Assembly: GCA_028690055.1 (NCBI GenBank)
Contig: JAQVBZ010000005.1
Location: forward strand, 379-64,378
DNA from: Minisyncoccota bacterium
GTDB taxonomy: Bacteria; Patescibacteriota; Minisyncoccia; JAHIHE01; JAGLIN01
Length of the DNA stretch: 64,000 bases
Reading direction: 5' to 3'
The translations under genes and the position numbers were made by a program. Positions 3,358 to 63,295 of this stretch are shown here, one piece after another; position 1 is the first letter of the stretch; the number at the start of each line of letters is the position of its first letter. The notes beneath the pieces are model-generated. The model ran no database searches, had not been told where the DNA came from, and saw only the letters and a list, made by a program, of their open reading frames with translations.

Positions 3358-3602
3358 ATTAAAAGTTATGATTATAACTATGCTATTGCATATTATTAGG
3401 AATGCAGTTTTTATACCCTAACTTGGCCTCGCTACGCCTTGGCATCGACGTGAACGTATCCGTCTAAAAGCCACACCAAAGACAACCGATACGATTTATA
3501 ATCTATAGCCTGTTAATTATCAAGATCCCCTCTCTACAATATATCACACTTTAACAACAAAAAAACGGGCAAATGCTGTCTGCTTCCTTCACGATTCCGA
3601 TA

Positions 3603-4046
3603 TCAATTAGCGTAGATACACTCATTGTTATTACAAGTAGCCGTTTCCCAACCACCAGTATTGTCTATTCCCGGTGTCAAAACAACTGAAAAAGTTCCTC
3701 CATCGCAATCATCATCAACCACGATTGAGCCAATAGAGGAAGCCGAAGGAAAGTCGCCATAGGAAGTGATATCGGAATAGTCTGAAGCTTTTCGACAAAT
3801 AGAATCTCCCGGCAAAGGCGAAGTATCTGCTGCAACCATTAGAGTAGTATTTACTGACTCGCAACACATTAGCAACGACGACTGTACACTTTTAGTGGTA
3901 GTCTGGAAGGAAACCCTGTTTGCCTTTATTCTAGCACCGGTTATGGAAGACATTACTATTGTCGACAATAGGCCAATGATCGAAATCACGACCAGAATTT
4001 CGATTAGAGAGAAACCCGAAATTTTTCTTCCAACAATCTTTTTCAT
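3603..4046 (-). CDS. Type IV pilin / pseudopilin-like protein
   Basis: N-terminal class III signal: MKKIVGRKISGFSLIEILVVISIIGLLSTIVM (G|FSLIE plus hydrophobic helix). C-terminal Cys-rich DDDCDGGTFS motif shared with the neighbouring pilin. Confidence 0.75.
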   Translation of the reverse strand: MKKIVGRKISGFSLIEILVVISIIGLLSTIVMSSITGARIKANRVSFQTTTKSVQSSLLMCCESVNTTLMVAADTSPLPGDSICRKASDYSDITSYGDFPSASSIGSIVVDDDCDGGTFSVVLTPGIDNTGGWETATCNNNECIYAN

Positions 4047-4169
4047 GTGTCTTATAAATTTATTTATATATTAACTTATGAACTAATAATATCACAAGTT
4101 ATATTTTTATACAATTTTAAAACGGATAGTCAAACTATCCGTTTTAAATTTAAAATTCAGAAAAACATC

Positions 4170-46179: not shown

Positions 46180-47194
46180 ATATGTTGTCTTTAATTATTG
46201 AAATTATAAATAATAAACTTTTTCGATCAAGATGTTTTGATTTGATGTTAATGCTACTTTCCAAGCCGCTGTATACCCTATAAATATCAGCTTTGGGATT
46301 AATATCAAATTGATTAATGGTGAATTCAAGAACTTTCCAAAATTCTGGATTTGAATTCTTATTAAAAAAAGCTCTTGCCAGATTTGCTTTGCAATCCTGT
46401 ATCAAGTCTTTTGTTGCTTCTGTATCCAAGTTATCCGTTTCATTTTTGAAAGATATGGGAATTGATTTGTATTCGAAAATATCACATCCAAGTACTCTAT
46501 TAATAATTAAGGTGTAAATTTCTTTTTTGAATAAATGTCTATTAAACTTTAAAACATCTTCAATTTTTTCAATTTGTTCATTCTCTATACAACTGTTTTT
46601 CTTAGCTGATTGAACATCTCTAATCTCTTCAAAAATATTTTGATAAAAATCATTATTTCTAATTTTTCTGTCTTTAAATTTGGTTATTCTTTTTATATAG
46701 TCGCTTATATCTTTACTATCTTGGACAAAAATAATTTTATTAAAAAAAGATTCGGCATCTTCTTCATTGTTTTTTCCGGTATTGTTTTTAAGCTTATCAA
46801 TGAGGCCATTTTTTATTCTTGATCTTGTATCTTCCTGGAAATTATCCATTCCGAATTCGTCCAGATTTTCTTTAATCAAATATTCTTTGTTCAGTTTAGA
46901 GACAAATAATATAAGGCAGCAAAAATTCAATCCTGATATATGGTTTTTGTACAAAGTAAACAAAAATTCTCCAATTTGTTTTGGATAAAATTTTGAATAA
47001 TTCTTAGATTGGATATCCCATAGCTCGCTATAGCTTTTATCTATGCCTGTAACATCGTTAAAACAATCAATTGTAAATAAATCGACCTGATCACGATCTT
47101 TTCTAAAGCCGACGAGATATAATAACGACTTCGTCTCGAATTCGGTTGCCTTTTTATTATTTCTCTCGGTATTGGTGAAAGTATATATACTCAT
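46169..47194 (-). CDS. Hypothetical protein co-operonic with the SMC-like ATPase (candidate effector)
   Basis: 341 aa. Overlaps the downstream ATPase gene by 11 nt. N-terminal D...D...(D/E)xK-like residues (FTIDCFNDV...WDIQSK) give a weak, unverified nuclease-like hint. Confidence 0.45.
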   Translation of the reverse strand: MSIYTFTNTERNNKKATEFETKSLLYLVGFRKDRDQVDLFTIDCFNDVTGIDKSYSELWDIQSKNYSKFYPKQIGEFLFTLYKNHISGLNFCCLILFVSKLNKEYLIKENLDEFGMDNFQEDTRSRIKNGLIDKLKNNTGKNNEEDAESFFNKIIFVQDSKDISDYIKRITKFKDRKIRNNDFYQNIFEEIRDVQSAKKNSCIENEQIEKIEDVLKFNRHLFKKEIYTLIINRVLGCDIFEYKSIPISFKNETDNLDTEATKDLIQDCKANLARAFFNKNSNPEFWKVLEFTINQFDINPKADIYRVYSGLESSINIKSKHLDRKSLLFIISIIKDNIYAN

Positions 47195-47482
47195 TAGATA
47201 AATCTATAAAAAATACGGTTTAAACTTAGCATATTTTAGCTAAAAATAACTGTTCTTGGCAATTAATAGGCGATAATATTATTTTATTTATATTCGAAAG
47301 TTGCTTTTATTGTTCTTTGGTTAAAATTAATAGATTAACCGTGTAGGGCAGTTCATTATTAACTTTGTTTATAACTTTACCAAGATCTAACTGTTTTGTA
47401 AACAAAAACAGAGCTAAAATAAGCTCTGTTTTTAATTCTCTCTGTGTTGACACGATGTTGCAGTGTTAAGTGAGGATATCTT

Positions 47483-48442
47483 TTATATCCTTCCCTCTGT
47501 AACCAATCGCCAATAGTGATAACCTAATGCAGTTAATTTACAAGATTTCGAATTTTGTGCTGCAAAATACATATACTCTTCACCGACGGGTCTTACTAGA
47601 TTTACACCTTGAAATTTTTGCAAATTTTTAAATATTGCAACATTTTCCGGCTTAGCAATATCAACATTGGTATCTTCAAAAGAAGGATCTAACAAATATT
47701 CAGCCTCAGGAGTAGGAAAATATTCTACAATTTTTCTTAATATATCAGGAGATACTGGAGGCGTGACAGTGCGTAAAGATGTGAAATTAGTAACATTTGT
47801 TTTGAAAACAGGTCTCTGGTCCCATGGACCGAGTGCCTGGTCAATGTAAGCATATATGCCGCCGGGCGTTATGCGTCCCATTAAATCAGCCGCTCCACCT
47901 TGTATGGCATCTAGCAATAAACCTGTAAATACTCCATGTCCGTCAATTTCGGCAGCTGTTTCAGTACTTAGACTTGCTGTTAAAACAACAATCCCTTCAC
48001 TTATTTGAGAAACATGTCCGCCAGATACTTCCGGCGAACCAAAAGACCCGGAATGGCAACAATCCAGAATGATAATTTTATTTTTTATCTTTGATTTATT
48101 GGCTAGGGTCAATATTTCTTCCATAGAAACGCCCTCATCATGTTTTTCATAATCTGGAGTTACTATATATCCACCAGTGATATCTAAATAGCCATGTCCA
48201 GAAAAATATAGCAAGGCTACATCGCCTTCTCCATCGAATAGTTCAACAATTTCGCCTTTTAATTCTGACTTTTTAGGAATATTATTTTTTAATCTCACAG
48301 AAAAGTTTGGAGAACCATCGCCATTCTTTTCGATAACACCAGATAATATTGAAGCGTCGTTTACGCAACCAGTGAGTGGTAAACCGGGGTAGTCATCTAT
48401 TCCAATTAATAATGCTTTTCTCATATTTTTATCTATCTCCAT
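47483..48442 (-). CDS. Caspase-like peptidase (C14 family) with C-terminal domain of unknown function
   Basis: 319 aa. Catalytic His in LYFSGHGY and catalytic Cys in IILDCCHSGSFG, with classic caspase/metacaspase spacing. Confidence 0.75.
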   Translation of the reverse strand: MEIDKNMRKALLIGIDDYPGLPLTGCVNDASILSGVIEKNGDGSPNFSVRLKNNIPKKSELKGEIVELFDGEGDVALLYFSGHGYLDITGGYIVTPDYEKHDEGVSMEEILTLANKSKIKNKIIILDCCHSGSFGSPEVSGGHVSQISEGIVVLTASLSTETAAEIDGHGVFTGLLLDAIQGGAADLMGRITPGGIYAYIDQALGPWDQRPVFKTNVTNFTSLRTVTPPVSPDILRKIVEYFPTPEAEYLLDPSFEDTNVDIAKPENVAIFKNLQKFQGVNLVRPVGEEYMYFAAQNSKSCKLTALGYHYWRLVTEGRI

Positions 48443-48812
48443 TTACTAGAGCTTTTATGTTATCCCATGTCCAACTATAATAACCTTCTAAACCATTTGG
48501 ACTGGGACAAATCTTGTCTTTATAACCTCGGACGCCCACAACAGGGACTCCTGCCTCTTTTGCCATTTCGATCTCCGCTTTAACTCCGCTGCACTGACTA
48601 GTTTTTGTGCCCACCATAACAATAACCAAGTCAGTTTTTTTGATTTTTGTTAAACATTTCTCTTTCCAAGTTCTTTCATCCCAAGGCTCTTTAACAGACC
48701 AATCTTCGATTTCGAAAGGAGAGTCTGGATTTTTTGATTGACCGACAAGCGAGTTTCTTAGAAATTCATCGTTATCAAAATCAAAACTAATAAAAACTTT
48801 CTTTTTAATCAT
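48429..48812 (-). CDS. TIR-like domain protein (DUF1863/TIR_2-type)
   Basis: 127 aa. KVFISFDFDND start. Later SQCSGVKAEIEMAKEAGVPVVGV motif typical of small bacterial TIR-like domains. Overlaps the caspase-like gene by 14 nt. Confidence 0.55.
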   Translation of the reverse strand: MIKKKVFISFDFDNDEFLRNSLVGQSKNPDSPFEIEDWSVKEPWDERTWKEKCLTKIKKTDLVIVMVGTKTSQCSGVKAEIEMAKEAGVPVVGVRGYKDKICPSPNGLEGYYSWTWDNIKALVNGDR

Positions 48813-48822
48813 ATATTTGTAG

Positions 48823-49035
48823 TTATTTAGATTTTCGGTTATAAGGTGACTGGTTCGTCGGTTTTAAGCTGACACCCAGATTGGATGCTTTTTTCTGCAC
48901 TCCGCTAACAGGCCTGCCTAACTTCAAGCTTATTACCCTGGTAGGCATGTTTTCTTTTGCCATTTCTTTCAATTGCTTAACTTCTGCTGGTGTCCATTGT
49001 TTACCGGCATTTTGAATGTACTTGGGGTTTGTCAT
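48823..49035 (-). CDS. GcrA-like small DNA-binding protein
   Basis: 70 aa. WTPAEVKQLKEMAKENMPTRVISLKLGRPVSGVQKKASNLGV resembles the GcrA N-terminal DNA-binding domain. Confidence 0.4.
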   Translation of the reverse strand: MTNPKYIQNAGKQWTPAEVKQLKEMAKENMPTRVISLKLGRPVSGVQKKASNLGVSLKPTNQSPYNRKSK

Positions 49036-49043
49036 ATATTTAA

Positions 49044-49700
49044 TTAGTTCTTAATAACATCTACCACTTTACCATTTATAATGAACTCGTCATCCTCACT
49101 AATATAAATTGGCATATATTCATGATCTGACCGGGCTCGCAAAACAATCCTATTATTTTTTATATCACGGTTATATTCTTTTATGGTAGCCAATCCGTCA
49201 ATAACTGCCAGTACTATATCGCCATTGTTGTAACTCTTTATTTCACGGTCTACCAGTACATAATCACCGCTTTCAATTTTATTGCCATTAACTTCGGCTT
49301 GGTTCATGGAATCTCCGTCAGTTTTAATGGCAAATAACCTGTTTTTATTTCTTGGTAAAAGGCTGGATGATACTTTAAGATATCTTTCAACCTTTTGTTC
49401 GGCATATATAGCCGCTGGTCCACAATTTGCAGCTCCTACTATCGGAATGGAGAATAAAGGACTTTTGCTGACATGGTTATAACCTTTCTTAACGACTTTC
49501 AGTATTCCTTGCTCTAGATTCATCTGTATCAGCCCAGCTTTTTCTAATTGCTGAAGATGGTGTTTAGCAATCTGGGGTTTACCTTGGGCTCCTATAAGCT
49601 CGGCGATTTTTCTTAAGCTCAACGACCCTATGTCTGGGGTGTTGGCGATAAGATTTAATAATTGTTGTTGTGTTATATTCATATGCAATAAATATAGCAC
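49044..49700 (-). CDS. LexA/CI-like repressor (wHTH + S24 peptidase domain)
   Basis: 218 aa. N-terminal winged helix. C-terminal S24 domain with GDSMNQ catalytic Ser motif and conserved Lys. Divergent to the phage-like genes. Confidence 0.75.
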   Translation of the reverse strand: MLYLLHMNITQQQLLNLIANTPDIGSLSLRKIAELIGAQGKPQIAKHHLQQLEKAGLIQMNLEQGILKVVKKGYNHVSKSPLFSIPIVGAANCGPAAIYAEQKVERYLKVSSSLLPRNKNRLFAIKTDGDSMNQAEVNGNKIESGDYVLVDREIKSYNNGDIVLAVIDGLATIKEYNRDIKNNRIVLRARSDHEYMPIYISEDDEFIINGKVVDVIKN

Positions 49701-49797
49701 ACCCCGGGGGATTTCGCAAGTACTTTTGTAAAAGTATTTGACATTTTACACCTAGTAGGTATGATGAAGTTATAAATTAATTCATAAATTTATTTTT

Positions 49798-50208
49798 ATG
49801 GAAAACTACGAGTTGCAATTGAAGCCTTTTGAAAGGAAGGACGGTTATAAGTATAAGGTAATTCGGCTTACCGATGTTACTCTCCATACTTCAAATAAGC
49901 GACCTACTAAGGCTATGGGCAAAAAGATTAAACAAGCGTTCGAACAAAACAAGCCCGGCAGGTTTTATGGAATAAAACCCCATGAAGTAATGGAAGGTGG
50001 TGATTTGCCCACGCTTATCAACAATCTTGTTAAGAATGATCCGAATTTCTTGAAAATGATCCAAGAAGAAGAGAAGAAGGGTTATAAGGTATTGCTCGAG
50101 TTGCCCGAGGAAGGCATTCCTGCTATATTTGGGCCAGATACGGTAGAATTTTTAAATAGCAAGAATGGACAGAGAATAATGAGAGATATTCATAAGCAAG
50201 AAATATAG
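49798..50208 (+). CDS. Hypothetical phage-associated protein
   Basis: 136 aa. First gene of the rightward operon. Confidence 0.4.
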   Translation: MENYELQLKPFERKDGYKYKVIRLTDVTLHTSNKRPTKAMGKKIKQAFEQNKPGRFYGIKPHEVMEGGDLPTLINNLVKNDPNFLKMIQEEEKKGYKVLLELPEEGIPAIFGPDTVEFLNSKNGQRIMRDIHKQEI

Positions 50209-50374
50209 CACTTTTTCACAATCGAATTAATGCGTAGTAAAAAGTAGAATAGCGTATCGCCTAAAAAACCATGCCTATTCCGCGCAAGAAACAAGTCTTA
50301 GACTTAAATGTCGGAGGCCTGTTTCATGTGTGGGATAGGTTTTTTTATATTTAAATTACTAACCATATGAAATT

Positions 50375-51649
50375 ATGGAAAAGTTAAAATGGCACACTGT
50401 GCAAAAAAGGATTAATGATCTGATTCCTCAGGAAGCTAATCCTCGAAAAATTACCGATAAGCAAATGTCGGATTTGAAGAAAAGTTTGTCTAAATTCAAT
50501 CTGGTAGAAATCCCGGCTGTCGATTTAGACGGCAGGATACTAGCAGGGCATCAAAGAATCAAGGCGCTTCAGCTCCTAGGGCGAGGCGAAGAATTGATTG
50601 ATATCAGGATTCCTAATCGTCAGTTAACCGAGGATGAGGCCAAAAGATATCTCCTTGCCAGTAATGCCTTGGGTGGTGACTGGGATTTCGACAAATTAAA
50701 AACCTTTGACTTGGATTTGCTCATTGACATTGGTTTTGATCAGATTGATTTGTCTCATTTCTGGGATAATGAACTCGAAATAAAAGAGGAGGATTTTGAT
50801 GTCGAAGAAGAACTGAAAAAAATAAAAACGCCAATAACGAAACCCGGTGATCTGATACATCTAGGCTGTCATCGTCTGTTATGCGGCGATTCTACTAATC
50901 CGGATAATCTAAAAAAGTTGTTTGGAGGAGAAAAGGCCTCGATGATATTCAGTGATCCGGTTTATAATATAAAACTCGATTATTCAAAGGGCATTGGCGG
51001 CAAAAATGAATATGGCGGTGCGGTTAATGATAATCGAAGCTATGATGAATACAAACAGTTTATCAAAAATTCCCTATTAGCCGCTTTGCCTAATACAAAT
51101 TCGGATTGTCATGTCTTTTATTGGTGTGACCAGACCTATATCGGCCTGATACAAGAATTGTATCGTGAATTAGGCATAATCAATAAACGAGTTTGTTTAT
51201 GGATTAAAAACTCACAAAACCCTACTCCAATGATTGCGTTCAACAAATGCTATGAGCCCGCAGTCTATGGTGTAAAAGGCAAACCATTCATAAACCCAGA
51301 CATAAGGAACTACAATGAGATATTAAACAAGGAACTAGGCACCGGGAACGAGTTATTTGAGGATATACATGATTCCTTGGATATCTGGCTCACCAAAAGG
51401 ATATCAGGTAAAGATTATGAGCATGCAACTAGCAAGCCATCAAAGTTATACGAAAAAGCTATTCGAAGATGCACTAAGCCGGGCGATATCATTCTTGATT
51501 CATTCTCTGGATCGGCCAGCACTATTATGGCTGGAGAACAACTAAAGAGAAAAGTATATGCCATGGAGCTGGAGCCAATCTTCTGTGATTTGGCGATAAG
51601 AAGATATAGAAAATTAACTGGCAGAAAGGAGGTAGTAAAGCATGTCTAA
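50375..51649 (+). CDS. ParB-like nuclease domain fused to DNA methyltransferase (phage-type orphan N6A/N4C MTase)
   Basis: 424 aa. N-terminal ParB/Srx pattern (EIPAVDLDGRILAGHQRIKAL), motif IV-like FSDPVYN, motif I-like DSFSGSASTIMAGE. Confidence 0.8.
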   Translation: MEKLKWHTVQKRINDLIPQEANPRKITDKQMSDLKKSLSKFNLVEIPAVDLDGRILAGHQRIKALQLLGRGEELIDIRIPNRQLTEDEAKRYLLASNALGGDWDFDKLKTFDLDLLIDIGFDQIDLSHFWDNELEIKEEDFDVEEELKKIKTPITKPGDLIHLGCHRLLCGDSTNPDNLKKLFGGEKASMIFSDPVYNIKLDYSKGIGGKNEYGGAVNDNRSYDEYKQFIKNSLLAALPNTNSDCHVFYWCDQTYIGLIQELYRELGIINKRVCLWIKNSQNPTPMIAFNKCYEPAVYGVKGKPFINPDIRNYNEILNKELGTGNELFEDIHDSLDIWLTKRISGKDYEHATSKPSKLYEKAIRRCTKPGDIILDSFSGSASTIMAGEQLKRKVYAMELEPIFCDLAIRRYRKLTGRKEVVKHV

Positions 51650-52064
51650 GAAAAACAGATTACAGCAAGCATTCTTTGAAGAACTAAAGAAAGTTCCTAT
51701 CGTGCTAGTGGCTTGTGAAAAATCCGGCATCTCCCGCAATAGCGTTTATCGTTGGAAACGGGAAGATAAGGAATTTTCCAGGGCGATGGATGAAGCTTTG
51801 GCTGAGGGCGAAGCTCTGGTAAACGATATGAGCGAAAGCCAGCTTCTGACTTTGATCAAAGAAAAGAATTGGTCAGCTATCAGTTTCTGGCTTCGTCATC
51901 GCAATCCAAAATTTAAGGATAAGATAGAGGTGACTTCGAGGAATGAAAACGTTGACGAATTAACGCCATCACAGGCGGAAACTGTACGCCAGGCTTTGAA
52001 ATTGGCCAATATCCTGCCTCAAGATGAACAAGTAACTGATAAGCCTAATAATCCAACTCTATGA
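51642..52064 (+). CDS. Phage terminase small subunit
   Basis: 140 aa. HTH pattern GISRNSVYRWKREDKEF. Overlaps neighbours by ATGTCTAA/ATGA (translational coupling). Directly upstream of the large subunit. Confidence 0.6.
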   Translation: MSKKNRLQQAFFEELKKVPIVLVACEKSGISRNSVYRWKREDKEFSRAMDEALAEGEALVNDMSESQLLTLIKEKNWSAISFWLRHRNPKFKDKIEVTSRNENVDELTPSQAETVRQALKLANILPQDEQVTDKPNNPTL

Positions 52065-53527
52065 AACCGAACAACATGATACCTCAGGCCTTGGTGGAAC
52101 AAATGACTAAGGACAGGAAGATAAGAACAGCAATAACTAAGGAAAGCTTCTCTTATTTCTTTCACTTTTATTATGCTCATTATGTTAAATATGCGACCGC
52201 CGATTTTCAAAAAGAAATCATAAGCTTGGTTGAAAAGAGCGACAAGGAAAATCTCTTTGTCGTGGCCTTCAGAGGTTCGGGTAAGTCTACCGTTATTACT
52301 GCCGCCTATCCGATCTGGGCAATCCTTGGCAAACAAGAAAAGAAATTTGTCGTCATTTTCTGCCAAACTCAAGCTCAGGCCAAGCAGCACATGATGAACT
52401 TGCGACGTGAATTAGAAGATAATGACTTATTAAAAAAAGACCTTGGCCCCTTCAGGGAAAATAGCGATGAGTGGGGCGCGCAATCAATCGTGTTTTCCAA
52501 TACGGATGCTCGTATTACCGTTGCTTCAGTGGATCAAAGTATTCGTGGCATAAGGCACTATCAACATCGACCGGATTTGATTATCTGTGACGATGTCGAG
52601 GATATAAGTTCCACTAAAACTAGGGAGGGAAGAAATAAAACCTATCAATGGCTAAAGAGCGAAGTGATACCAGCTGGTGATAGAGATACCAGATTGATAA
52701 TAGTCGGTAATTTATTACACGAGGATTCCCTGCTTATGAGGTTAAAGGAAGAAAGAGAAAAAGAGGTTATTGATGGCAACTTTCTGTTTTATCCGTTAAT
52801 TGACAAGAAGGGTGATTGTCTATGGCCGGGCAAATACCCAACCGATGAAGATATTGAAAATGAGCGCAGAAAGGTCGGTAATGAGATTACCTGGCAACAA
52901 GAATACCTACTTAATATCGTTCCGTCCGAAGATCAAGCTATATTTCAAGAATGGATAAACTATTACGATGAGATACCGGCACCTCTAAAACTATATGGCG
53001 GTTATAGTTCGTATATGGAAATAAGAATTGGAATTGACCCAGCTATTTCTAAAAGTGATGTCGCTGATTATACTGCTATGGTTCCTGGTATGTTATATGA
53101 AACTACGTCTAACTATAAGCTTTATATTCTCCCTAAAATAATAAATAAGCGTTTAAGCTTCCCTGAAACAGTTGATGCTTGTAAAACATTATATCAGAGC
53201 TACAAAAGAGATTCTGTTTATCCAAAATTCATCATAGAAGATGTGGCTTATCAAAAAGCCTTGCCTCAACAACTGCAAGTCGAGGGTATTTATAATGTAA
53301 TGACAACCAGGCCAGGAAATCAGGATAAAAGAAGTAGACTTATCGTACTAGCTAACCTAATTAAAACTGGACAAATATTGTTCCCAAAGGAAGGAGCGGA
53401 GGAACTAATACAACAGATAGTCCATTTTGGGGTTGAAAAACATGATGACTTAGCTGATGCCTTTGCCAATTTAGCTCACAGCATGATTGAAAAACCGCCG
53501 AGATCGTGCAGAGTCTATTGGGTATAG
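52061..53527 (+). CDS. Phage terminase large subunit
   Basis: 488 aa. Walker A AFRGSGKST, Walker B LIICDDVED, C-terminal RNaseH-like nuclease acidic residues. Confidence 0.8.
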   Translation: MKPNNMIPQALVEQMTKDRKIRTAITKESFSYFFHFYYAHYVKYATADFQKEIISLVEKSDKENLFVVAFRGSGKSTVITAAYPIWAILGKQEKKFVVIFCQTQAQAKQHMMNLRRELEDNDLLKKDLGPFRENSDEWGAQSIVFSNTDARITVASVDQSIRGIRHYQHRPDLIICDDVEDISSTKTREGRNKTYQWLKSEVIPAGDRDTRLIIVGNLLHEDSLLMRLKEEREKEVIDGNFLFYPLIDKKGDCLWPGKYPTDEDIENERRKVGNEITWQQEYLLNIVPSEDQAIFQEWINYYDEIPAPLKLYGGYSSYMEIRIGIDPAISKSDVADYTAMVPGMLYETTSNYKLYILPKIINKRLSFPETVDACKTLYQSYKRDSVYPKFIIEDVAYQKALPQQLQVEGIYNVMTTRPGNQDKRSRLIVLANLIKTGQILFPKEGAEELIQQIVHFGVEKHDDLADAFANLAHSMIEKPPRSCRVYWV

Positions 53528-53672
53528 CTAGAAAAGTTATCGGTAAGGCTATATATTCGAATATAAAGTAAAAACTTTGCAGACTGCATAAAATTGTCGA
53601 CTTTTCATTTACTTTTAGCGGAAAAAGAGGTAAAGTAATGGTAATTTGATAATAAAAAAACTATAAAATCAT

Positions 53673-53864
53673 ATGATAAAACCAGTAAACGTTACGTCCT
53701 TAAACGCATCTGATGAGTTATCTTGTGAATGTAATAAATGCGGTTGGGTAGGCAAGCTCAAATTGAATGGATATATTGTTAATACAGACAATGACGGTAA
53801 TCCATTAGGAAATATCGACGAGAACTGTCCTGAGTGCGGGGCTAGTTTAAATGAAAATATATAG
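53673..53864 (+). CDS. Small zinc-ribbon protein
   Basis: 63 aa. CECNKCGW...CPECG. Confidence 0.35.
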   Translation: MIKPVNVTSLNASDELSCECNKCGWVGKLKLNGYIVNTDNDGNPLGNIDENCPECGASLNENI

Positions 53865-53916
53865 GAGGTGTGCCAAATAAAAATGTCTATAATAAATAAC
53901 ATAAACTACTAAAAAC

Positions 53917-54390
53917 ATGGATAACCTAATATTTGCCAGAAATTTAGTTAAAGGTAAAATCGCAGAAACCATATTTGCCCAGATGCTCAGAGAAACAAAA
54001 GATTTCACAGTCTTAGAATTTGGCTATGAGAAAATCATTCCTGAATTAGTACAACAGGGATATGATGAAAATAATTTGATGCTTGAAACTTTGAGAACAG
54101 CACCAGATTTTGCAGTTATTAATCAAAAAACGAGAGAGGTTAGACTTATCGAGGTAAAATATCAGCGTACTATAAATTATGACTATGTTTTAAAATATGC
54201 AGAAAAGATGAGCCAGTCATGGAATCCGTCTTATCTTTTTGTTGCTACTCTGGATGGCTTTTATTTTGATGAAATTAATAATGTTATTAATGATAAAGGC
54301 AGGATTTCTCCTTTAAAACATCCCCAGATAAGCAATGATTTACAAGATAAATATCTAAAGATATTAACGGATTTCGAGAAAAACAATTAA
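53917..54390 (+). CDS. PD-(D/E)xK nuclease-fold protein (YraN/UPF0102-like)
   Basis: 157 aa. E (KIAETIFAQ) ... APDFAVIN ... VRLIEVKYQ gives a canonical E-PD-ExK arrangement. Confidence 0.5.
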   Translation: MDNLIFARNLVKGKIAETIFAQMLRETKDFTVLEFGYEKIIPELVQQGYDENNLMLETLRTAPDFAVINQKTREVRLIEVKYQRTINYDYVLKYAEKMSQSWNPSYLFVATLDGFYFDEINNVINDKGRISPLKHPQISNDLQDKYLKILTDFEKNN

Positions 54391-54406
54391 GAAATATTTA
54401 AAAAAT

Positions 54407-55696
54407 ATGCCTGAAAAGAAAAATAGACGAGAGGAATATTTAGAAAGTACAAACGAGGACAAAGAAATATATTTTTTTATTGATGAATTTCAAAAAATAA
54501 ATATTAAATCTCGGGAAGTGTATATCAAAACCAATAAAGTTATTCATCATCCATTTAATAAATCTGGAAACTTTAAATATAAAAAAATAACAGAAATTAT
54601 ATATGAAGGATTGCCAGATCCACTGCCTAGAGGTTTTATCAAAGATTGGAGGCTTGGGTATGGTTTTACGAAAGTATTGAATCCAATACTTTATTTGATT
54701 GAAACAAAATTTGATGTGTCGAAAGTTGTCGTGAAGCCAAAAGGAAAATTCATGATAAAAAATAGAACGGTATACCTTAGTTATGAAGATTTGAATAAGT
54801 TCTATCCGAAAATGGACACTCTTATGAAAGTTCAGAGTAGTCAAAAAGAAGCGTTAGTCTCAAAATATCTTAGTCAGTATCTACCTACAGAATTTAAAGA
54901 TAGTAAACAAAAATATATAAAAGGATCAATTTATTCGATTGTCACAGACCAAATTGGTAAGGATGGATCAATTTCAAAGGATGATTATGATGCTATGCTT
55001 GAGCTAGTTGTATCGAAGTCAAGCGAGCAAACGATTGAATCGAAAAAAATAGTTTTAGCCACAAAGGAAAAAATCGAAAAAATATTCTTAGAAGATGGGG
55101 TTAAAGATTTTAAAAAAATATTAATTTTAAAATCTGTTTCTGGAGGATTTGAGAAAAAATGGGAACAGTTTTTCAAGGAGAATACATGGATTATCTCCAA
55201 TCTGTTCTCTCTCCCTGCATTGCTGTTTGCTAATCAGGCTTATGTGGGCGGAAAGGAAATCTTCAATACTAATGGAAAAGTGACGGATTTTTTATTTAGG
55301 AACAAATTGACCGATAATTTGGCAATTATTGAACTCAAAACTCATAAAACTGAGCTATTGTCCAAGAAGCCTTACAGAGGAGATGATGTATACTCATTAT
55401 CCGAAGAACTATCTGGCGCCGTTAATCAAGTATTAGACCAAAGGCAAAATTTACTAAATGATTTTTATGCCTTAAGATGCAAAACTGGCAATACGAATCA
55501 ATTTGAATCATATAATTCTAGATGTCTTATAATCGCTGGTAAAATCGAAGATCTTCCTAAAAATGGTAAAAGAAGTTTTGAAATTTTCCGAAATAATCTA
55601 CATGGCGTTGAAATTGTTACATTTGATGAGGTGCTGGAGAAAATGGAAACTTTTGTTTCTTTAATTAAGACGGATGCTAAAAAAAGAAAGAGATAG
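54407..55696 (+). CDS. Large PD-(D/E)xK nuclease-domain protein (Shedu/DUF4263-like candidate)
   Basis: 429 aa. C-terminal half carries D...DNLAIIELK (hydrophobic strand + ExK) and ends ...GVEIVTFDEVLEKME. The family assignment is tentative. Confidence 0.35.
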   Translation: MPEKKNRREEYLESTNEDKEIYFFIDEFQKINIKSREVYIKTNKVIHHPFNKSGNFKYKKITEIIYEGLPDPLPRGFIKDWRLGYGFTKVLNPILYLIETKFDVSKVVVKPKGKFMIKNRTVYLSYEDLNKFYPKMDTLMKVQSSQKEALVSKYLSQYLPTEFKDSKQKYIKGSIYSIVTDQIGKDGSISKDDYDAMLELVVSKSSEQTIESKKIVLATKEKIEKIFLEDGVKDFKKILILKSVSGGFEKKWEQFFKENTWIISNLFSLPALLFANQAYVGGKEIFNTNGKVTDFLFRNKLTDNLAIIELKTHKTELLSKKPYRGDDVYSLSEELSGAVNQVLDQRQNLLNDFYALRCKTGNTNQFESYNSRCLIIAGKIEDLPKNGKRSFEIFRNNLHGVEIVTFDEVLEKMETFVSLIKTDAKKRKR

Positions 55697-55764
55697 TTAG
55701 GTATTCGTAAAAAGATTTTTACGACTTTATTTATATAGGTGATAACAAATTTAATATAAACGCG

Positions 55765-56193
55765 ATGTTTTCTATAGGCAATATCTGTTCAATAATTTCC
55801 GTTCCATTTGCTTCATCCGCATCTTCTTTCTTATGGCAGATTATTCTCTTGCTATGGCCGTGGTACTGGCTGGGCATATTTCTCTTTCTTATTACATGGA
55901 TAATCTGGGAAATAATAACTCGTAACGGTACGGCACATTATAATTCTAAAAATGGCTTTTCTCCTTCTTTTAATCGTTTTGTCGGTAGTGGTACTTATGC
56001 AGGTTTGCAGGCATTAGTCTATTTATTTTTTGAAAAGTTTTTTGGCGATTCTGTATATTGCATGGTATGGCCATACGAAATTCATCTCGTTGTATTTCTT
56101 TCATCGGGATTGTTGCTACATCTGTCTGGATTTTGGCCTTATCTTTGGGAACCAAGCGGACAACGATACCACAAAAAGAGACATTATCGTTAG
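55765..56193 (+). CDS. Hypothetical membrane protein
   Basis: 142 aa, about 4 hydrophobic segments. Confidence 0.4.
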   Translation: MFSIGNICSIISVPFASSASSFLWQIILLLWPWYWLGIFLFLITWIIWEIITRNGTAHYNSKNGFSPSFNRFVGSGTYAGLQALVYLFFEKFFGDSVYCMVWPYEIHLVVFLSSGLLLHLSGFWPYLWEPSGQRYHKKRHYR

Positions 56194-56318
56194 ATTATAA
56201 TACTCCAAACAGTTATAATAACCACTTACAAGTGGTTATTATTGTTAACATAGCTAGTCATCCTAGCCAATATCAGCTAAAATAATAGGTTCGTATAATA
56301 ACATATTAATATAATTCT

Positions 56319-57422
56319 ATGAACGATAAACCATATAATCACTTAAAGGATCGCATATATTACAGTGAACTTTACGATAAGCTTACTATCGAAAAATGTC
56401 AGTGGTGGGAGAAGCGCCAATATTCTAAAGACATTTCTAAACTAAAAGGCAAAGAAAAGGAAATCGAAGAAGCTAAAGAAAGATGGTTTCATAATGCGGT
56501 TATACCTATAGCCCTGTATTTTATTAAAGCAGATCGCGCTTCTAAGAAGTCTGAAACAATCCAAGGGTGGATGAAACGAGATAAAGAGAAAGACGAGAAA
56601 GTTATTAATGCCAAAAAACCGCAAGGCGTTCGGTGCTTAGGCTGTAGCTCACCCTTGGAAAACTGCATATCACGTGATCTTATGAATAATCATAAGGGAA
56701 AAGAAGAAGTGCTTTTTATGTTTGAATGCTCTAAATGCGGAAAACGCCGAGTTTATTGGGAAGATGGAACAGAATGGGAGCATAAGCCAACTTGTATAAA
56801 ATGTAATTTTGAAGTGCAGGCAGAGAGTAAAAGAGAGAAAGATATTATTATCCATATATGTTCTTGTTCACACTGCGGTCATGTGGAGACTGACGTATGG
56901 GATTTAAATGAAAGAAAGGAGGAAAAGATAGATCCAGACTTTGAAGCCAATCGAAAGAAATATTGCATTTCCGAACAAGAAGGATATGAAATTATAAGCC
57001 GAGCAGAACAGATGGGAAAATTAGTTGAAAAATTTAAAGATAAAGAAGAAAATAAAGATATTTATGATGCGGTTAGTAAAATTAAAAAGCTAAATATCGC
57101 AGAGTTACAAGATCTTCTTAATTCTGTGATGGAAAATAATGGCTATATTAAACTTGAATTTGAAAAGCCTGAATTTCAGAAAGATGTTATCTTGGGTTTT
57201 AGCCTTCAAGACAACAAGCCCGGTCGGGAAAAATATGACAGCGTTCACAATCTTCAAAAGCTTATAAAAGAGACTCTTACACCTACAAACTGGAGATTGA
57301 TGAGCGATGGAATCATATATCGTTTAGGGTTCCTGCAAGGCAGACTTAAAGGTATTGAAGGCGAAGAAAATCTCTTGAAACTAGTCGAAAACGACCTTAA
57401 GAAAAAGGCTAAAAGTAGGTAG
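56319..57422 (+). CDS. Multi-zinc-ribbon protein, hypothetical
   Basis: 367 aa with four CxxC pairs (CLGC, CSKCGK, CIKC, CSCSHCGH) and a Lys/Glu-rich C-terminus. Confidence 0.45.
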   Translation: MNDKPYNHLKDRIYYSELYDKLTIEKCQWWEKRQYSKDISKLKGKEKEIEEAKERWFHNAVIPIALYFIKADRASKKSETIQGWMKRDKEKDEKVINAKKPQGVRCLGCSSPLENCISRDLMNNHKGKEEVLFMFECSKCGKRRVYWEDGTEWEHKPTCIKCNFEVQAESKREKDIIIHICSCSHCGHVETDVWDLNERKEEKIDPDFEANRKKYCISEQEGYEIISRAEQMGKLVEKFKDKEENKDIYDAVSKIKKLNIAELQDLLNSVMENNGYIKLEFEKPEFQKDVILGFSLQDNKPGREKYDSVHNLQKLIKETLTPTNWRLMSDGIIYRLGFLQGRLKGIEGEENLLKLVENDLKKKAKSR

Positions 57423-57511
57423 ATAAACTGTTGGTAACTAGCTCTTAGCAAAAAATAATATTTATGATATTATTGCTGGACATCTAGATGTTTTTAGTTT
57501 AAAATGGTAAT

Positions 57512-57716
57512 TGACAATTGATGGCTGAAAGGCCAGGCTACCTAAACTCAGACTTCATGTCTGGGCATGGTGCTTCAAGACCCAACCAAGACACTGACCT
57601 CCACGTTCAGCGACTCTTGGTTGGGCTATGTCTGGAAACGGACATAGGGCCGCAAGGCCTAGCTGGCGTGGAGACTTTTGGATCTCTACGACCAGCTACT
57701 GCATAGCTGGTTTTTA
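57512..57716 (+). ncRNA. Candidate structured small RNA (GC-rich, >=6 hairpins incl. GAAA and GCAA tetraloops) ending in an intrinsic terminator
   Basis: Hairpins CAGAC-UUCAU-GUCUG, CCCAACCAAGA/UCUUGGUUGGG (11 bp), CUAUGUC-UGGAAACG-GACAUAG, GGCC-GCAA-GGCC, GUGGAGA/UCUCUAC. Long-range GCCAGGCUA/UAGC-UGGC pairing. Terminator CCAGCUA-CUGCA-UAGCUGG+U5. GC about 55% versus about 33% in the flanks. Confidence 0.4.
57692..57716 (+). terminator. Rho-independent terminator (CCAGCTA-ctgca-TAGCTGG-TTTTT)
   Basis: Perfect 7-bp stem plus T-run. This is the 3' end of the structured RNA candidate. Confidence 0.55.
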
Positions 57717-57740
57717 TTAATTAAATAAAACATTAAAACC

Positions 57741-58385
57741 ATGAACGAGGAAACAACGAAGTGTCCTAAGTGCAAAGAAGAAGTTTTAAAAGGTGCGAAA
57801 AAGTGCAAGCATTGTGGTGCGGATCTTAGAAATTGGTTTATGCGTCACAAAATCATCTCTGTATTTTTAGTTCTTATGTTTATCGGCATCATAAGTGGAG
57901 GAAGTAATCCAAATAACTCAAACAATGGGCAAAATTCCAATGGCATTCAAAACGATACTAAAGCGGAACAAAAGACTGGCAAAATAAATGAAACTATTTC
58001 TGTCGGAAATTTTAGCTACAGAGTGCAGAAAGCGGAACAGGCTCAGTCGGTTGGTAACCAATATATTAACCATGATGCCTCTGGAGTTTATGAAATCGTA
58101 TCTTTAACACTCAGAAATAATGACAAAGAATCACGTTATGCAGACAGCAATATGTTTAAACTGATGGATAATCAAGGCAGATCATTTGTCGTTTCTACGG
58201 AAGCTACTAGTGCTTATTCTATAGCCAACGATAATCAGTACGATCTGTTCTTAAAACAAGCCAATCCCGGTCTTGAAATAAACGGAGTGCTTATCTTTGA
58301 TATTCCCCAAGATGCCAGTGGTCTTAAACTTGAAGTAAGCGGCGGATTTGGTAGTCCGGAAAAAGCCTACATAGAACTTAACTAA
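57741..58385 (+). CDS. Zinc-ribbon / TM / extracellular-domain protein (DUF4352-like architecture)
   Basis: 214 aa. CPKC...CKHCG ribbon, one TM (IISVFLVLMFIGIISGG), Asn/Gln-rich linker, C-terminal beta-rich domain. Confidence 0.5.
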   Translation: MNEETTKCPKCKEEVLKGAKKCKHCGADLRNWFMRHKIISVFLVLMFIGIISGGSNPNNSNNGQNSNGIQNDTKAEQKTGKINETISVGNFSYRVQKAEQAQSVGNQYINHDASGVYEIVSLTLRNNDKESRYADSNMFKLMDNQGRSFVVSTEATSAYSIANDNQYDLFLKQANPGLEINGVLIFDIPQDASGLKLEVSGGFGSPEKAYIELN

Positions 58386-58569
58386 ATCTATATTTAGACG
58401 TTTAAAGAATACCCTCTGTATCTTCTTAGATCAGAGGGTATTTTTATTTGTTATGCCAACCAAACTCAATTCTTCGATAAGATAACCTGTATCTGTTCGC
58501 TCTTAGCAAAAGCTTAAAAGTGTGTCATTAATGGAGGCGTAGATTTAACTAAATAATCAACTAAATCAT

Positions 58570-59853
58570 ATGCTTCCATTAGAAACTAAGCTGAAATACT
58601 GCTTATATGCTAGAAAAAGCACTGAATCAGATGAGCGACAAGCCTTATCAATTGATTCTCAAGTTAAAGAAATGCTTCAAATAGCCGAACGAGAAAACTT
58701 AGAAATCGTTGATATCAGGAGAGAATCAAAATCAGCCAAAGACTCAGGTAACCGTCCTATCTTCAAAGAGTTAATCAAAGATATAACGGAAGAAAAGTTC
58801 AACGCTATCATTACCTGGGCTCCCGATAGACTTTCTAGAAACGCTGGCGATTTAGGATCGCTAGTTGATTTAATGGATGAGAAAAAATTAATGAGCATTC
58901 GTACTTTTGGCCAAACTTTTAGTAATTCTCCAAATGAAAAGTTTCTGCTCATGATTTTATGTTCTCAGGCCAAACTAGAAAATGATAATCGAGGGATAAA
59001 CGTAAAAAGAGGTTTAAGGGCAAGATGCGAGATGGGCTTATGGCCGACCTGTCCGCCAACGGGATACTTTAAAGAAAAGCGAGTTGATCATAAAGGACAA
59101 TGCTTAGTTGATCCTGATAGAGGTCCGGTAATAAAGCAAATGTTTGAGAAGGTTGCTTATGAGAAATGGTCCGGCCGAAAGCTTTATAACTGGCTTAGAT
59201 TCGATTTAAACTTTAGGACAGCTTTAGGTAAAAAACACTTAAGTCTCGGTAATATTTATCGACTTCTAGAAAATACCTTCTATTATGGCCCTTTTGAATA
59301 TCCTCGTGGTAGTGGTAACTGGTATCAGGGAAAACATGAACCGATAATCACCAAAGAAGTATTCGATTTAGTCCAAGAACAGATGAAGAATTCCCAACTA
59401 GTCAGACGAGAGAATATTGAGTTTGCCTTTACTAAAGTAATGAAGTGCGGTTTATGCGGTTCGGGAATTTCAGCCACGGAAAAATTTAAGAAGTTAAAAG
59501 ATGGCGGCTATAATCGCCATGTCTACTACGGATGTACCAAAGCAAAAGACAATAATTGTAAATCAGGCTATATTAGCGAAGAAGACCTGATTAAACAATT
59601 ACAAAAACAAATCGATAAATTGGATTTTAAAAAAGTTTCTATTCAAGATAAAATTCAGGGAGAAATCAAAAGATTCAAAAAGTTTCAAATCATGGCAACT
59701 GGCAAAAATGACAATATCGACGTAAGCGACGTCGATATTAAAAATTACATCAAATTCTTGTTAAAAGAAGGAGACGATCAAGAGAAACGAGAACTACTCA
59801 CATGCTTAAATGGGGAGATATTGTTGAAGAATAAGGTGATTGTGATTAAATAA
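58570..59853 (+). CDS. Large serine recombinase (phage-type integrase)
   Basis: 427 aa. Resolvase catalytic domain with YARKSTESDERQ (nucleophile Ser), recombinase domain, zinc-ribbon CGLCGSG...YYGCTK. Confidence 0.85.
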   Translation: MLPLETKLKYCLYARKSTESDERQALSIDSQVKEMLQIAERENLEIVDIRRESKSAKDSGNRPIFKELIKDITEEKFNAIITWAPDRLSRNAGDLGSLVDLMDEKKLMSIRTFGQTFSNSPNEKFLLMILCSQAKLENDNRGINVKRGLRARCEMGLWPTCPPTGYFKEKRVDHKGQCLVDPDRGPVIKQMFEKVAYEKWSGRKLYNWLRFDLNFRTALGKKHLSLGNIYRLLENTFYYGPFEYPRGSGNWYQGKHEPIITKEVFDLVQEQMKNSQLVRRENIEFAFTKVMKCGLCGSGISATEKFKKLKDGGYNRHVYYGCTKAKDNNCKSGYISEEDLIKQLQKQIDKLDFKKVSIQDKIQGEIKRFKKFQIMATGKNDNIDVSDVDIKNYIKFLLKEGDDQEKRELLTCLNGEILLKNKVIVIK

Positions 59854-59881: not shown

Positions 59882-60619
59882 CTATTTAATCACATTCCAA
59901 TTATCGAGAAAATATCCCATTTCGTGATCCATATTACCGAGATAAATCTTCTCATCTCTAAATTTGATATTTACGCGGTAGCGTTTGCCGTGCCCGACTT
60001 CCAAAATTGCTTTTTCGTGGACTTTCTTCTCAACTTCGTGAAATGGCAAAATTAGAAAGTGATTTTTCTTTTCTCCGTGCAGGACGAAAATATAAAAAAC
60101 ATTGCCGTTACTATGTCGCTCAAAAGAAACTTTGCGGATATCAAAAACATAGGTATTAAATCGATTAATATTTGAAGTTTTAACCTGTATGCCAAATAAC
60201 TGATTATCTCTGACAGCCACAATGTCTATTCCGACATCTACGCTCATTATGCTGGCATTGAAACCACGAAAAAGGAGTTCCGAGCAAACAAGATGTTCAC
60301 CGCCTTTGCCGGTAAATCCACCTTCAATTACAATCTTTTCCTCCTCAGCCTTTTCCACCTCTCGGATTCTTGGTGTTTCTCTGATTTCTTTTTTGTTTGG
60401 GTTAAGGGCATAAGTTCCGGGGGCAATTCTTACAAAATCTGATCCTTCGCCTTTGGTTTTGATATCCACCACAATCTGCGCCTTCATAGTCGCTTCCGGC
60501 GTTGCGCCTTCGGTTTCCAGAAGGCCGGACTCCAAGGCTAAACGAGTGATTTCGGTATAGTGCAGAGGCTTTTTAGTTTTTTGCAATATTTCAATAGCGG
60601 ATTGTTTGAAGGTGTTCAT
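59882..60619 (-). CDS. HARE-HTH domain protein with C-terminal restriction-endonuclease-like (PD-(D/E)xK, Mrr-cat-like) domain
   Basis: 245 aa. N-terminal SAIEILQKTKKPLHYTEITRLALESGLLETEGATPEATMKAQI (HARE-HTH pattern). C-terminal E (GGEHLV) ... VDVGIDIVAV ... GIQVKTS. Confidence 0.55.
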   Translation of the reverse strand: MNTFKQSAIEILQKTKKPLHYTEITRLALESGLLETEGATPEATMKAQIVVDIKTKGEGSDFVRIAPGTYALNPNKKEIRETPRIREVEKAEEEKIVIEGGFTGKGGEHLVCSELLFRGFNASIMSVDVGIDIVAVRDNQLFGIQVKTSNINRFNTYVFDIRKVSFERHSNGNVFYIFVLHGEKKNHFLILPFHEVEKKVHEKAILEVGHGKRYRVNIKFRDEKIYLGNMDHEMGYFLDNWNVIK

Positions 60620-62131: not shown

Positions 62132-63295
62132 TTACCGATTTCCTTTTGCTCGATTGTGTGTCTTACACAACATCTCGCAGTTTTTAATATCACTCTTACC
62201 ACCCTTACTCCATGCCGAAACATGATCGGCGTCCATATCCGCAATACTCCAAATCTTGTCTTTGTTTGCATCGTGTCCAATCGCACAGTGAGAGCAGTTT
62301 GAAACACCCTTTTTCTTTGCGATAGCGGTTTGAGCTTCGTAAACTGAACGTTTAGTTGAATCCTCAAATACTCGTACTTCAAGAAGTTTTGTTTCAACTC
62401 CTCCACCTAAAACATACTCAAAAATGCCTTTTCGACTTTTTACGAAACCATCAGCATAGAGTTTTTTAACCAGGGCAGAGACGGTAGTTGGATTGAATTT
62501 TTTCTTGTGATAAGTTTCGTAAAGCCTGTTCCACTCCAAGCCTTTCATCTCACTTTCAACTTCAGTAAATGTACTTGAGACCCAATCAATAACAGTGTCG
62601 AAATGTTTTTTTAGTTCGGTAATATTTTTGTCATTGCGGTGCTTACTCATGTAACTATCGATACCACCACCAGAAACCCAATCTAAAGCCCGTTCCAAAT
62701 ATGCTTGGCGCTTTATATCACCTGCAATGTACGCGCCCCATTTAAGCACATTGGCATTTTGACTATTGCTAAATTCTTCGCGGCCACGAGTGACAAAAGG
62801 CCCAGAATATACTGCGTTAAGAATCTCTTGTTCGGTTAATGGTACGCCAGCGATGTTGATAGTCTTAAACCAATCCTTAATCTCAGGCTCGTCGCCTTTA
62901 CATATATACACCAACAATTTAGTGTTCATTATTTGCTCGCGCTGACTGGTGGCCATACCGCTGTAATACTGTTCGTGACCATTCTTGTCTTTAACAGCAA
63001 ACTTGCCTTTCACAAACCGACCAATGCTAGTGATACGTTGCTGTCCATCGAGCACTTCAAATTTATCATTGTCAACTTGGTTGAAATAAATTAAACCTAT
63101 TGGATAACCTTTCAAGATCGAGTCAATTACAGCAACATCACGTTTGCCGTCAGCGTAAATGTAATTACGCTGATACTCTGGTTGAATAGTCAGTTTACCA
63201 GAGAGGCCAAACAAACCCTTTCCTTCGAATTCGTTATATTCGAACCCGTCACAAACTTCTTTAATGGTGATATCATTCTTTAAGGTTGTTTTCAT
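62132..63295 (-). CDS. GmrSD-like DUF262 (ParB/NTPase-like, DGQQR) + DUF1524/HNH endonuclease protein (type IV restriction-like)
   Basis: 387 aa. N-terminal [10 protein letters not shown]...[11 protein letters not shown]-terminal HNH: HCAIGH...[32 protein letters not shown]. Confidence 0.8.

Follow-up and report, generated by a model that had tools for sequence, protein, structure and literature searches.

A stretch of 64,000 nucleotides (nt) from a Patescibacteria contig (JAQVBZ010000005.1), referred to here as the window, encodes two adjacent predicted nucleases with PD-(D/E)xK active sites. These are very probably two functionally independent nuclease genes, lying side by side as cargo between the large terminase gene (TerL) and the serine integrase gene of a small phage-derived element. 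The downstream gene is predicted to encode SduA, the nuclease of the Shedu anti-phage system, and the upstream gene a protein of 157 amino acids (aa) that belongs to a family absent from the libraries searched. Both open reading frames (ORFs), along with all the motif strings quoted for them in an earlier sequence-only reading of this DNA, are present in the translations of the ORF list:

53917-54390, + strand: 157-aa ORF; NCBI MDD3006358.1, "hypothetical protein", PHX30_02120
54407-55696, + strand: 429-aa ORF, predicted SduA (Shedu); NCBI MDD3006359.1, "DUF4263 domain-containing protein"

The two NCBI proteins are exact matches, and their GenBank source is a Candidatus Pacebacteria/Paceibacterota metagenome-assembled genome (MAG). 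The genes are separated by a gap of 16 nt (54391-54406) on the same strand, in a region with a G+C content of 0.31, compared with 0.40-0.47 across most of the window up to about 43 kilobases (kb). A scan for terminators, which included the space between the 157-aa gene and SduA, predicted none, and a promoter scan was uninformative, with counts equal to the shuffle level. Given their conservation among relatives, the motifs predicted in both proteins are far beyond what would be expected by chance.

A predicted canonical Shedu nuclease

Pfam, PADLOC, PDB-sequence and predicted-fold evidence agree that the 429-aa protein is, as judged from sequence and model, a bona fide Shedu SduA, and the Shedu/DUF4263 assignment made in the sequence-only reading is thereby supported. 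The Pfam domain SduA_C (PF14082) matches residues 249-410 with 88.5 bits against a cut-off of 27. In PADLOC, 14 SduA models match, the best of them with E=1.4e-84 over residues 67-426, and this span suggests that most of the sequence preceding the nuclease domain is likewise that of a known SduA subfamily. A phmmer search of PDB sequences recovered Bacillus cereus SduA (8ti8/8ti9, E=1e-34), and homologues carry the name "Shedu immune nuclease family protein".

The active site of the B. cereus enzyme comprises E204 (motif I), D249 (motif II), E264 and K266 (motif III) and Q295 (motif IV), together with the GGK lysine K238 (Gu et al., bioRxiv 10.1101/2023.08.10.552793). Once the PDB chain's numbering, which is offset by +2, is allowed for, E204/K238/D249/E264/K266/Q295 align to E249/K283/D294/E309/K311/Q341 of the window protein, which gives E249, D294, E309, K311 and Q341 as the catalytic residues and K283 as the GGK lysine. 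When the window protein was aligned with 43 homologues, the most distant of them 30% identical (alignment A2, 44 SduA sequences), no substitution occurred at the five catalytic residues or at G281/G282, and at least 90% of the sequences had K283. This mapping alters part of what had been proposed from the sequence. The string LTDNLAIIELK, from which a D-x-DNLAIIELK motif had been read, is present, but the motif II aspartate is predicted to be D294 (in VTDFLF) because of its homology with B. cereus D249, and not D303 of "TDNLAIIELK". The tail VEIVTFDEVLEKM is likewise present, but it lies 16 residues before the C-terminus and not at the very end of the protein as had been thought.

55148-55690, + strand: predicted DUF4263 PD-(D/E)xK nuclease domain (residue mapping and conservation in A2)
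55151: E249 of SduA
55286: D294 of SduA
55331 and 55337: E309 and K311 of SduA
55427: Q341 of SduA

The AlphaFold2 (AF2) model of SduA, a monomer with a mean predicted local distance difference test score (pLDDT) of 81, is divided into a beta-rich N-terminal domain (residues 8-125), a helical linker (126-239) and the nuclease domain (248-428). In a Foldseek search against the PDB only SduA structures came out on top, led by 8ti9 with a template modelling (TM) score of 0.84, a root-mean-square deviation of 2.9 Å and 30% identity, followed by 8ti8 and then by the Escherichia coli structures 8ps4/8ps5. The protein thus has a domain above threshold, a complete active site and a predicted fold match, and the gene occurs singly, without an obligate partner. 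From this evidence and from the contexts of its orthologues, described below, it agrees with Shedu membership in every respect that could be tested, and the 429-aa gene is, on sequence and modelling grounds, a canonical single-gene Shedu with a complete PD-(D/E)xK active site.

By homology with the B. cereus and E. coli enzymes, this SduA would form a homotetramer in which the N-terminal domains hold the nuclease off until features of phage DNA, such as free ends or single-stranded DNA, are sensed. Once activated, it would nick or cut the invading DNA. The modelled domain plan, with its separate segments at 8-125 and 126-239, is compatible with a tetramer controlled by N-terminal domains.

A small PD-(D/E)xK family found in no library

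Conservation of the motifs, the layout of the AF2 model, fold and Pfam matches and a low ratio of nonsynonymous to synonymous substitution rates (dN/dS) together indicate that the 157-aa protein is a real, constrained nuclease of predicted PD-(D/E)xK fold, from a family described in no library. Its translation contains GKIAETIFAQ, TAPDFAVIN and LIEVKYQ, the strings in which an E...PD...ExK motif had been recognized, and both this active site and the fold are borne out by conservation, the AF2 model, Foldseek and the Pfam matches of relatives. The predicted catalytic residues are encoded as follows:

53965-53967, + strand: E17
54106-54108, + strand: D64
54151-54153, + strand: E79
54157-54159, + strand: K81

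Among 35 close relatives 49 columns are invariant, including E79. In a more distant set of 64 relatives, 26-62% identical to the window protein, the positions conserved in at least 90% of sequences are K12, G13, I15, E17, F20, G36-Y37-E38, P63-D64, V80-K81, F108 and L133. The AF2 model (pLDDT 82, predicted TM score 0.77) has an alpha-beta-beta-beta-alpha-beta core, with E17 in helix 2-27, P63-D64 preceding strand 65-69, and E79 and K81 in strand 75-82. As modelled, this placement of E17, D64 and E79/K81 is the canonical PD-(D/E)xK layout, on a minimal restriction-endonuclease fold whose nearest types are TnsA-N, Hjc and RecU. Foldseek searches of the PDB and BFVD returned only PD-(D/E)xK nucleases, among them influenza PA-N, Hjc, RecU, BpuSI and phage endonucleases, and these matches are weak (E of about 1e-3, TM 0.4-0.5). 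Within the distant set, 40 of the 64 relatives match the Pfam family TnsA-like_N (PF08722) at E<=0.1, weakly and with a best E of 4.5e-6, and the rest match other PD-(D/E)xK families; the window protein itself has no PF08722 match. No transposase-like genes were seen among 136 immediate neighbours of the family, nor were TnsB- or TnsC-like partners.

The name "YraN-like", under which the motif had been proposed, does not survive these searches. The UPF0102/YraN family (PF02021) has no match to the window protein at E<=1 in Pfam and is absent from the 25 most-matched of the 48 Pfam families that the 64 relatives match at E<=0.1, and no YraN-type structure is among the best 50 Foldseek matches listed for the model. 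More generally, the 157-aa sequence gave nothing significant against Pfam, NCBIfam, PHROGs or PADLOC, its best Pfam match being a sub-threshold one to HSDR_N_2 (15 bits, cut-off 25). PDB sequences yielded nothing significant with either the single sequence or the family profile, and the family has no match in IMG/VR viral contigs, INPHARED phages or PLSDB plasmids.

Homologues of the protein fall into 806 clusters at 90% identity, and their source names are mostly Patescibacteria lineages. The best 120 of these clusters are 71-99% identical to it and nearly all 155-160 aa long, and no Pfam domain is recorded for the homologue clusters. In an exhaustive HMMER search, 1.84 billion representatives yielded 309 clusters at 50% identity, almost all of them stand-alone proteins of about 155-165 aa, and a scan for close relatives found the gene in 31 of 185,579 species-representative genomes. 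The gene has a dN/dS of 0.03-0.13, with saturated synonymous sites, and its dN is half that of SduA. The idea that the protein is exceptionally conserved was rejected, since TerL, the methyltransferase and the integrase of the same element pair have similar dN/dS values.

Some family members (P0180, P0173, P0208, P0153 and P0166) carry a fused C-terminal zinc ribbon or a tail resembling a helix-turn-helix (HTH), and a separate zinc-ribbon gene lies just upstream of the 157-aa gene. Together these hint at a DNA-binding accessory module of the family.

53673-53864, + strand: 63-aa zinc-ribbon ORF, kept in two sister elements (L008 and L129, introduced below)

A second family copy, PHX30_00470 (P0105; loci L005-L007), is 73% identical, and the gene that directly follows it encodes a methyl-directed restriction enzyme of the DpnI type. 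Judged by the locus-tag prefix, this copy seems to be in the same MAG as PHX30_02120. Apparent tandem duplicates of the gene in two other loci (L055 and L056) turned out to be unrelated proteins of the same length.

In terms of activity, the 157-aa protein would most likely be a Mg2+-dependent DNA endonuclease that acts alone or with the small zinc-ribbon helper, and it could serve as a defence or conflict nuclease or as a structure-specific one.

A phage-derived element with an exchangeable cargo slot

The sequence-only reading had placed both genes inside an element, and the backbone genes, PHROG matches and synteny support a mobile element that is phage derived. Its features, from left to right, are:

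49044-53527: phage-derived backbone (Pfam, PHROGs, synteny with L008, L129 and IMG/VR contigs)
49044-49700, - strand: S24 CI/LexA-like repressor (Pfam; phrog_4)
Between the repressor and the methyltransferase: 136-aa gene of the backbone
50375-51649: ParB-N4/N6 DNA methyltransferase (Pfam; phrog_498)
51642-52064: small terminase TerS (phrog_4044)
52061-53527: large terminase TerL (phrog_38, E=3e-88)
54389-55746: exchangeable SduA cassette, without DNA homology to L008 (blastn breakpoints)
55765-56193, + strand: 142-aa predicted membrane protein in the cargo slot, no family match
56319-57422, + strand: 367-aa Cys-rich protein in the cargo slot, no family match
57741-58385, + strand: Zn-ribbon and DUF4352 gene (phrog_806), within a second insertion, 57454-58499
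58570-59853, + strand: large serine recombinase/integrase (Pfam Resolvase, Recombinase and Zn_ribbon_recom; phrog_95, E=6e-62)

No portal, capsid or tail genes were found in the window between 49.0 and 59.9 kb with Pfam or PHROGs. The closest comparison is with L008, a locus from a Patescibacteria MAG, which is collinear with the window from a caspase-like/TIR gene pair through the integrase at 76-96% aa identity. The integrase marks the right end of the shared DNA, where homology stops at 59834. By blastn, the DNA homology between the two runs from 47312 to 54388, the end of the 157-aa gene, and resumes at 55747, and in the place of SduA L008 has a gene for a 1001-aa KAP-family NTPase (Pfam). 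In a further locus, L046, the shared backbone reaches the same breakpoint and the sequence beyond it begins like the KAP gene of L008. L129 likewise has this backbone, the zinc-ribbon gene and the 157-aa gene, and next come HamA and a DEAD helicase, which make up a Hachiman system; here homology ends at 54422 and resumes at 56217, so that the stretch replaced is 54423-56216. Yet another sequence follows the 157-aa gene in L047. The 142-aa and 367-aa cargo genes are common to the window and L008 (76-77% aa identity), and the DNA of L129 is homologous to that of the 367-aa gene only. Relative to L008 the insertion at 57454-58499 is clean, and it forms a second variable point of the cargo region just upstream of the integrase.

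More distant relatives of the element, with TerL proteins 46-67% identical, were found in IMG/VR. The integrase lies about 150-220 nt from the TerL match in three of these contigs (L134, L135 and L137) and about 1 kb from it in L138, while other cargo is present in L133 (about 4 kb) and L139 (about 7 kb); the 157-aa gene is in none of the six. Taken together with L008, L129 and L047, these contigs indicate that the whole interval from TerL to the integrase is a variable cargo region. Sequence comparison thus identifies both nuclease genes as predicted cargo, and SduA as one of several interchangeable defence cassettes. It can also be seen that in this element family (49044-59853 in the window) the integrase directly follows TerL in several of the IMG/VR "viral" contigs, and the element may be a satellite-like or minimal integrative element of Patescibacteria with its own terminase.

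Two genes probably brought together by cassette exchange

The sequence-only reading had raised the possibility of a novel two-nuclease module, and the distribution of the two genes argues against it. We compared loci of the small gene drawn from species-representative genomes (32 loci) and metagenomes (80 loci), with several contigs added by exact look-up. SduA is next to the 157-aa gene in 2 of the 86 distinct loci, namely the window (with an identical short contig) and one other, L009. The genes within four positions of the family on either side amount to 428 neighbours in 338 clusters, 292 of which are singletons, and the commonest cluster occurs in 8 loci; the 136 immediate neighbours alone span 88 Pfam families. 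From the SduA side, five of six orthologue loci (L040, L042, L044, L140 and L141, with orthologues 61-74% identical) lack the 157-aa gene, and the flanking genes in these five are unrelated on both sides. Common ancestry of the two families was considered and rejected (hhalign probability 0.8%).

The sister elements add to this, in that the 157-aa gene stays in place while SduA alone is swapped for other defence genes. The adjacency of the two genes would then have arisen through defence-cassette exchange just downstream of the 157-aa gene, and SduA would adjoin that gene because the slot just 3' of it is the site of exchange. An independent stand-alone nuclease is the most likely reading of the 157-aa protein.

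Several observations weigh against two independent genes, or against the account of SduA given above. In L009 the pair is again adjacent, with a gap of 12 nt, and the DNA it shares with the window corresponds precisely to these two genes (53917-55668), so the two genes have been inherited or have moved together at least once. The 16-nt spacing in the window, with no predicted terminator, is compatible with co-transcription. Relatives at least 80% identical to the 157-aa protein are very often found directly upstream of defence genes (SduA, KAP, Hachiman, PHP-AAA_21, and an AAA_11/12 helicase with a WYL protein, to which the more distant DpnI case can be added), so the protein might conceivably act as a general helper to effectors of various kinds. 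As for SduA, its oligomeric state and trigger are drawn only from homologues about 30% identical in the nuclease domain, and its N-terminal domain cannot be aligned by sequence to those of solved structures.

Alternative roles for the 157-aa protein

A tentative alternative, which we regard as unlikely, is that the 157-aa protein works in recombination or repair as a structure-specific nuclease, namely a Holliday-junction resolvase of the Hjc/RecU type that serves the element or its host and has nothing to do with defence. Such a role would suit a small, single-domain protein under strong purifying selection, the Foldseek matches include archaeal Hjc (2eo0 and 2wcw), RecU and phage "Holliday junction resolvase" models, and DNA-repair genes (UDG, LexA-like S24, NUDIX) are among the recurrent neighbours. 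The fold matches are, however, weak and no better than those to influenza PA-N and restriction enzymes, and Pfam, PHROG and NCBIfam give no resolvase match. The gene is also patchy, as the genome scan and cluster counts above illustrate, and it is absent from the minimal elements.

It is similarly doubtful, though worth setting out, that the 157-aa proteins constitute a new, widespread minimal PD-(D/E)xK family that acts either as a stand-alone anti-phage or conflict nuclease, or as an endonuclease or "leader" that marks defence-cassette exchange and may itself drive it. Relatives at least 80% identical that lie directly upstream of defence-type genes also include members in type I restriction-modification (R-M)/Abi_2 islands. 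In four loci (L126-L128 and L130) close relatives precede large, uncharacterised defence-like genes, which encode a 1020-aa protein with PHP and AAA_21 domains or a 1584-aa AAA_11/AAA_12 helicase followed by a WYL protein; in L126-L128 a gene for a 1631-aa MTES_1575 helicase-nuclease is located upstream of the 157-aa relative.

The narrower form of this idea, in which the protein is a generic leader or helper of exchangeable defence cassettes, or an endonuclease that promotes their exchange, for example by a homing-like cut near its own 3' end, is distinctly improbable. What speaks for it is mostly the geometry of the swaps. The left breakpoint of every cargo swap falls at the 3' end of the 157-aa gene (54388-54422) while the right one varies, and between otherwise unrelated loci the ORF alone forms an island of 75-86% nucleotide identity. 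In addition, close relatives precede the unrelated defence genes listed above, the nearest Pfam family is that of a transposon endonuclease (TnsA_N), and the same MAG apparently holds the second copy upstream of DpnI. But selection for intact genes would also yield breakpoints at gene ends, and comparison of 82-84 loci turned up nothing conserved beside the gene, whether non-coding sequence, repeat or target-like motif. Many of the more distant members adjoin ordinary genes (S49 and S51 peptidases, NUDIX, GatB, a transporter), no TnsB/TnsC-like partners were seen, and the saturation of synonymous sites suggests that the copies are old and have not recently spread.

Least probable is a two-component Shedu variant in which the 157-aa nuclease would be the sensor, co-nuclease or regulator of SduA by a logic like that of KELShedu: two-gene Shedu systems do exist (PMC12577705), and the shared orientation, the short gap lacking a predicted terminator and the recurrence of just these two genes in the different genomic context of L009 would suit one, but the pairing is rare from both sides, the 157-aa gene is kept in L008, L046 and L129 where a KAP NTPase or Hachiman replaces SduA, and the window SduA has the full N-terminal domain and linker of single-gene Shedu, whereas KELA partners a Shedu with a short N-terminal domain.

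Two other candidate roles were rejected. A link to type I R-M had been suspected from one locus (L001) and from the weak HSDR_N_2 match; the recurrent 371-aa upstream neighbour proved to be a lipoprotein and not HsdS, and no R-M subunit recurs. The protein was also considered as the restriction enzyme cognate to the element's methyltransferase, and this was set aside because the minimal elements keep the methyltransferase without the 157-aa gene.

Other genes in the neighbourhood

An overlapping pair at the element's left edge (47483-48812, - strand) encodes a 319-aa caspase-like Peptidase_C14 protein (phrog_18397, E=9e-88) and a 127-aa ThsB-like TIR protein. Both are 94% identical in L008, the TIR gene is partly present in L132, and the two look like a defence-type pair. 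To their left, in the stretch of lowest G+C in the window (0.28-0.31), are two large ORFs of 539 and 341 aa (44560-47194, - strand) with no Pfam or PHROG match.

Directly after the integrase, a 245-aa protein (59882-60619, - strand) has an N-terminal HARE-HTH domain and a weak C-terminal match to PDDEXK_5/phrog_5018, which makes it a candidate, on these profile matches, for a third PD-(D/E)xK-type protein in the neighbourhood. Outside the element, a gene at 62132-63295 (- strand) combines GmrSD_N and HNH domains (DUF262-type). It is 70% identical to a gene (2964-4133) that lies two genes upstream of a 71%-identical SduA orthologue in L040/L041, and the presence of such a gene near SduA in both contexts suggests that these two defence genes travel together, occupying the same neighbourhoods in more than one genome.

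Significance

This locus is of value chiefly for the element's hotspot architecture and for the small nuclease family, which is unannotated. The Shedu gene itself adds little, since its family has been characterised, its membership is easy to recognise and GenBank already gives it the DUF4263 label, although it documents Shedu as mobile-element cargo in the ultra-small Patescibacteria. The interval between TerL and the integrase of this compact element behaves as a defence hotspot that holds Shedu, a KAP NTPase, Hachiman, other cargo or nothing, and it extends the P2/P4 hotspot concept to Patescibacteria. The small nuclease family is strongly constrained and repeatedly occupies the upstream edge of defence cassettes, and it would merit a family definition of its own if it does prove to be a defence gene or a cassette-exchange factor.

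Comparison with known systems

The closest characterised relative of the window SduA is that of B. cereus B4264 (8TI8/8TI9; Gu et al., bioRxiv 10.1101/2023.08.10.552793), which shares all the DUF4263 motifs and the layout of N-terminal domain, linker and nuclease, and is likewise a single-gene system of defence islands and mobile elements. The two differ in that identity is about 30% in the nuclease domain, the N-terminal 190 residues cannot be aligned by sequence, and Y315 of the B. cereus octamer interface corresponds to C358. The host of the window SduA is a Patescibacteria MAG, and the protein is known here from its gene and a predicted model. The E. coli SduA (8PS4/8PS5; Loeff et al., bioRxiv 10.1101/2023.08.10.552762) also combines a DUF4263 nuclease with an N-terminal domain and gives a whole-chain Foldseek E of about 1e-10, but it is only 13-15% identical and superposes poorly overall (TM of about 0.35-0.4).

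KELShedu (KELA and KELB; PMC12577705) resembles the window pair in that a DUF4263 nuclease gene is directly preceded by a small gene of the same orientation. KELA is a 110-aa, 12.6-kDa WYL-like SH3 beta-barrel that binds double-stranded DNA and the Shedu protein with a short N-terminal domain, KELB, in which that domain has only 55 residues (PMC12577705). Unlike the 157-aa protein, KELA is not a PD-(D/E)xK nuclease, and the 157-aa gene is not conserved with SduA orthologues. The small gene is accompanied by SduA in 2 of 86 loci and SduA by the small gene in 1 of 6, and the partner fold is unlike that of KELA, so that the window pair falls outside the KELShedu type.

The 157-aa protein shares the E...PD...ExK layout on an alpha-beta-beta-beta-alpha-beta core with TnsA-like_N (PF08722), Hjc, RecU and influenza PA-N. 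Its structural similarity to such nucleases is low (TM 0.4-0.5), and it has neither the TnsA C-terminal domain nor TnsB/C neighbours. Its additional conserved motifs KGKIAE, GYE and SWNPS have no counterpart that we found in TnsA-like_N or minimal PD-(D/E)xK nucleases.

As a whole, the element is best compared with the defence hotspots of P2/P4 prophages and phage satellites (Rousset et al. 2022, PMC9122126). It differs from these in its host, a member of the Patescibacteria, and in its gene content, with a repressor, a ParB-methyltransferase, TerS, TerL and a serine integrase but no structural genes, and it is known from sequence alone. It resembles them in its organisation, in which a conserved mobile backbone encloses one interval where unrelated anti-phage systems swap, in this case Shedu, a KAP NTPase and Hachiman.

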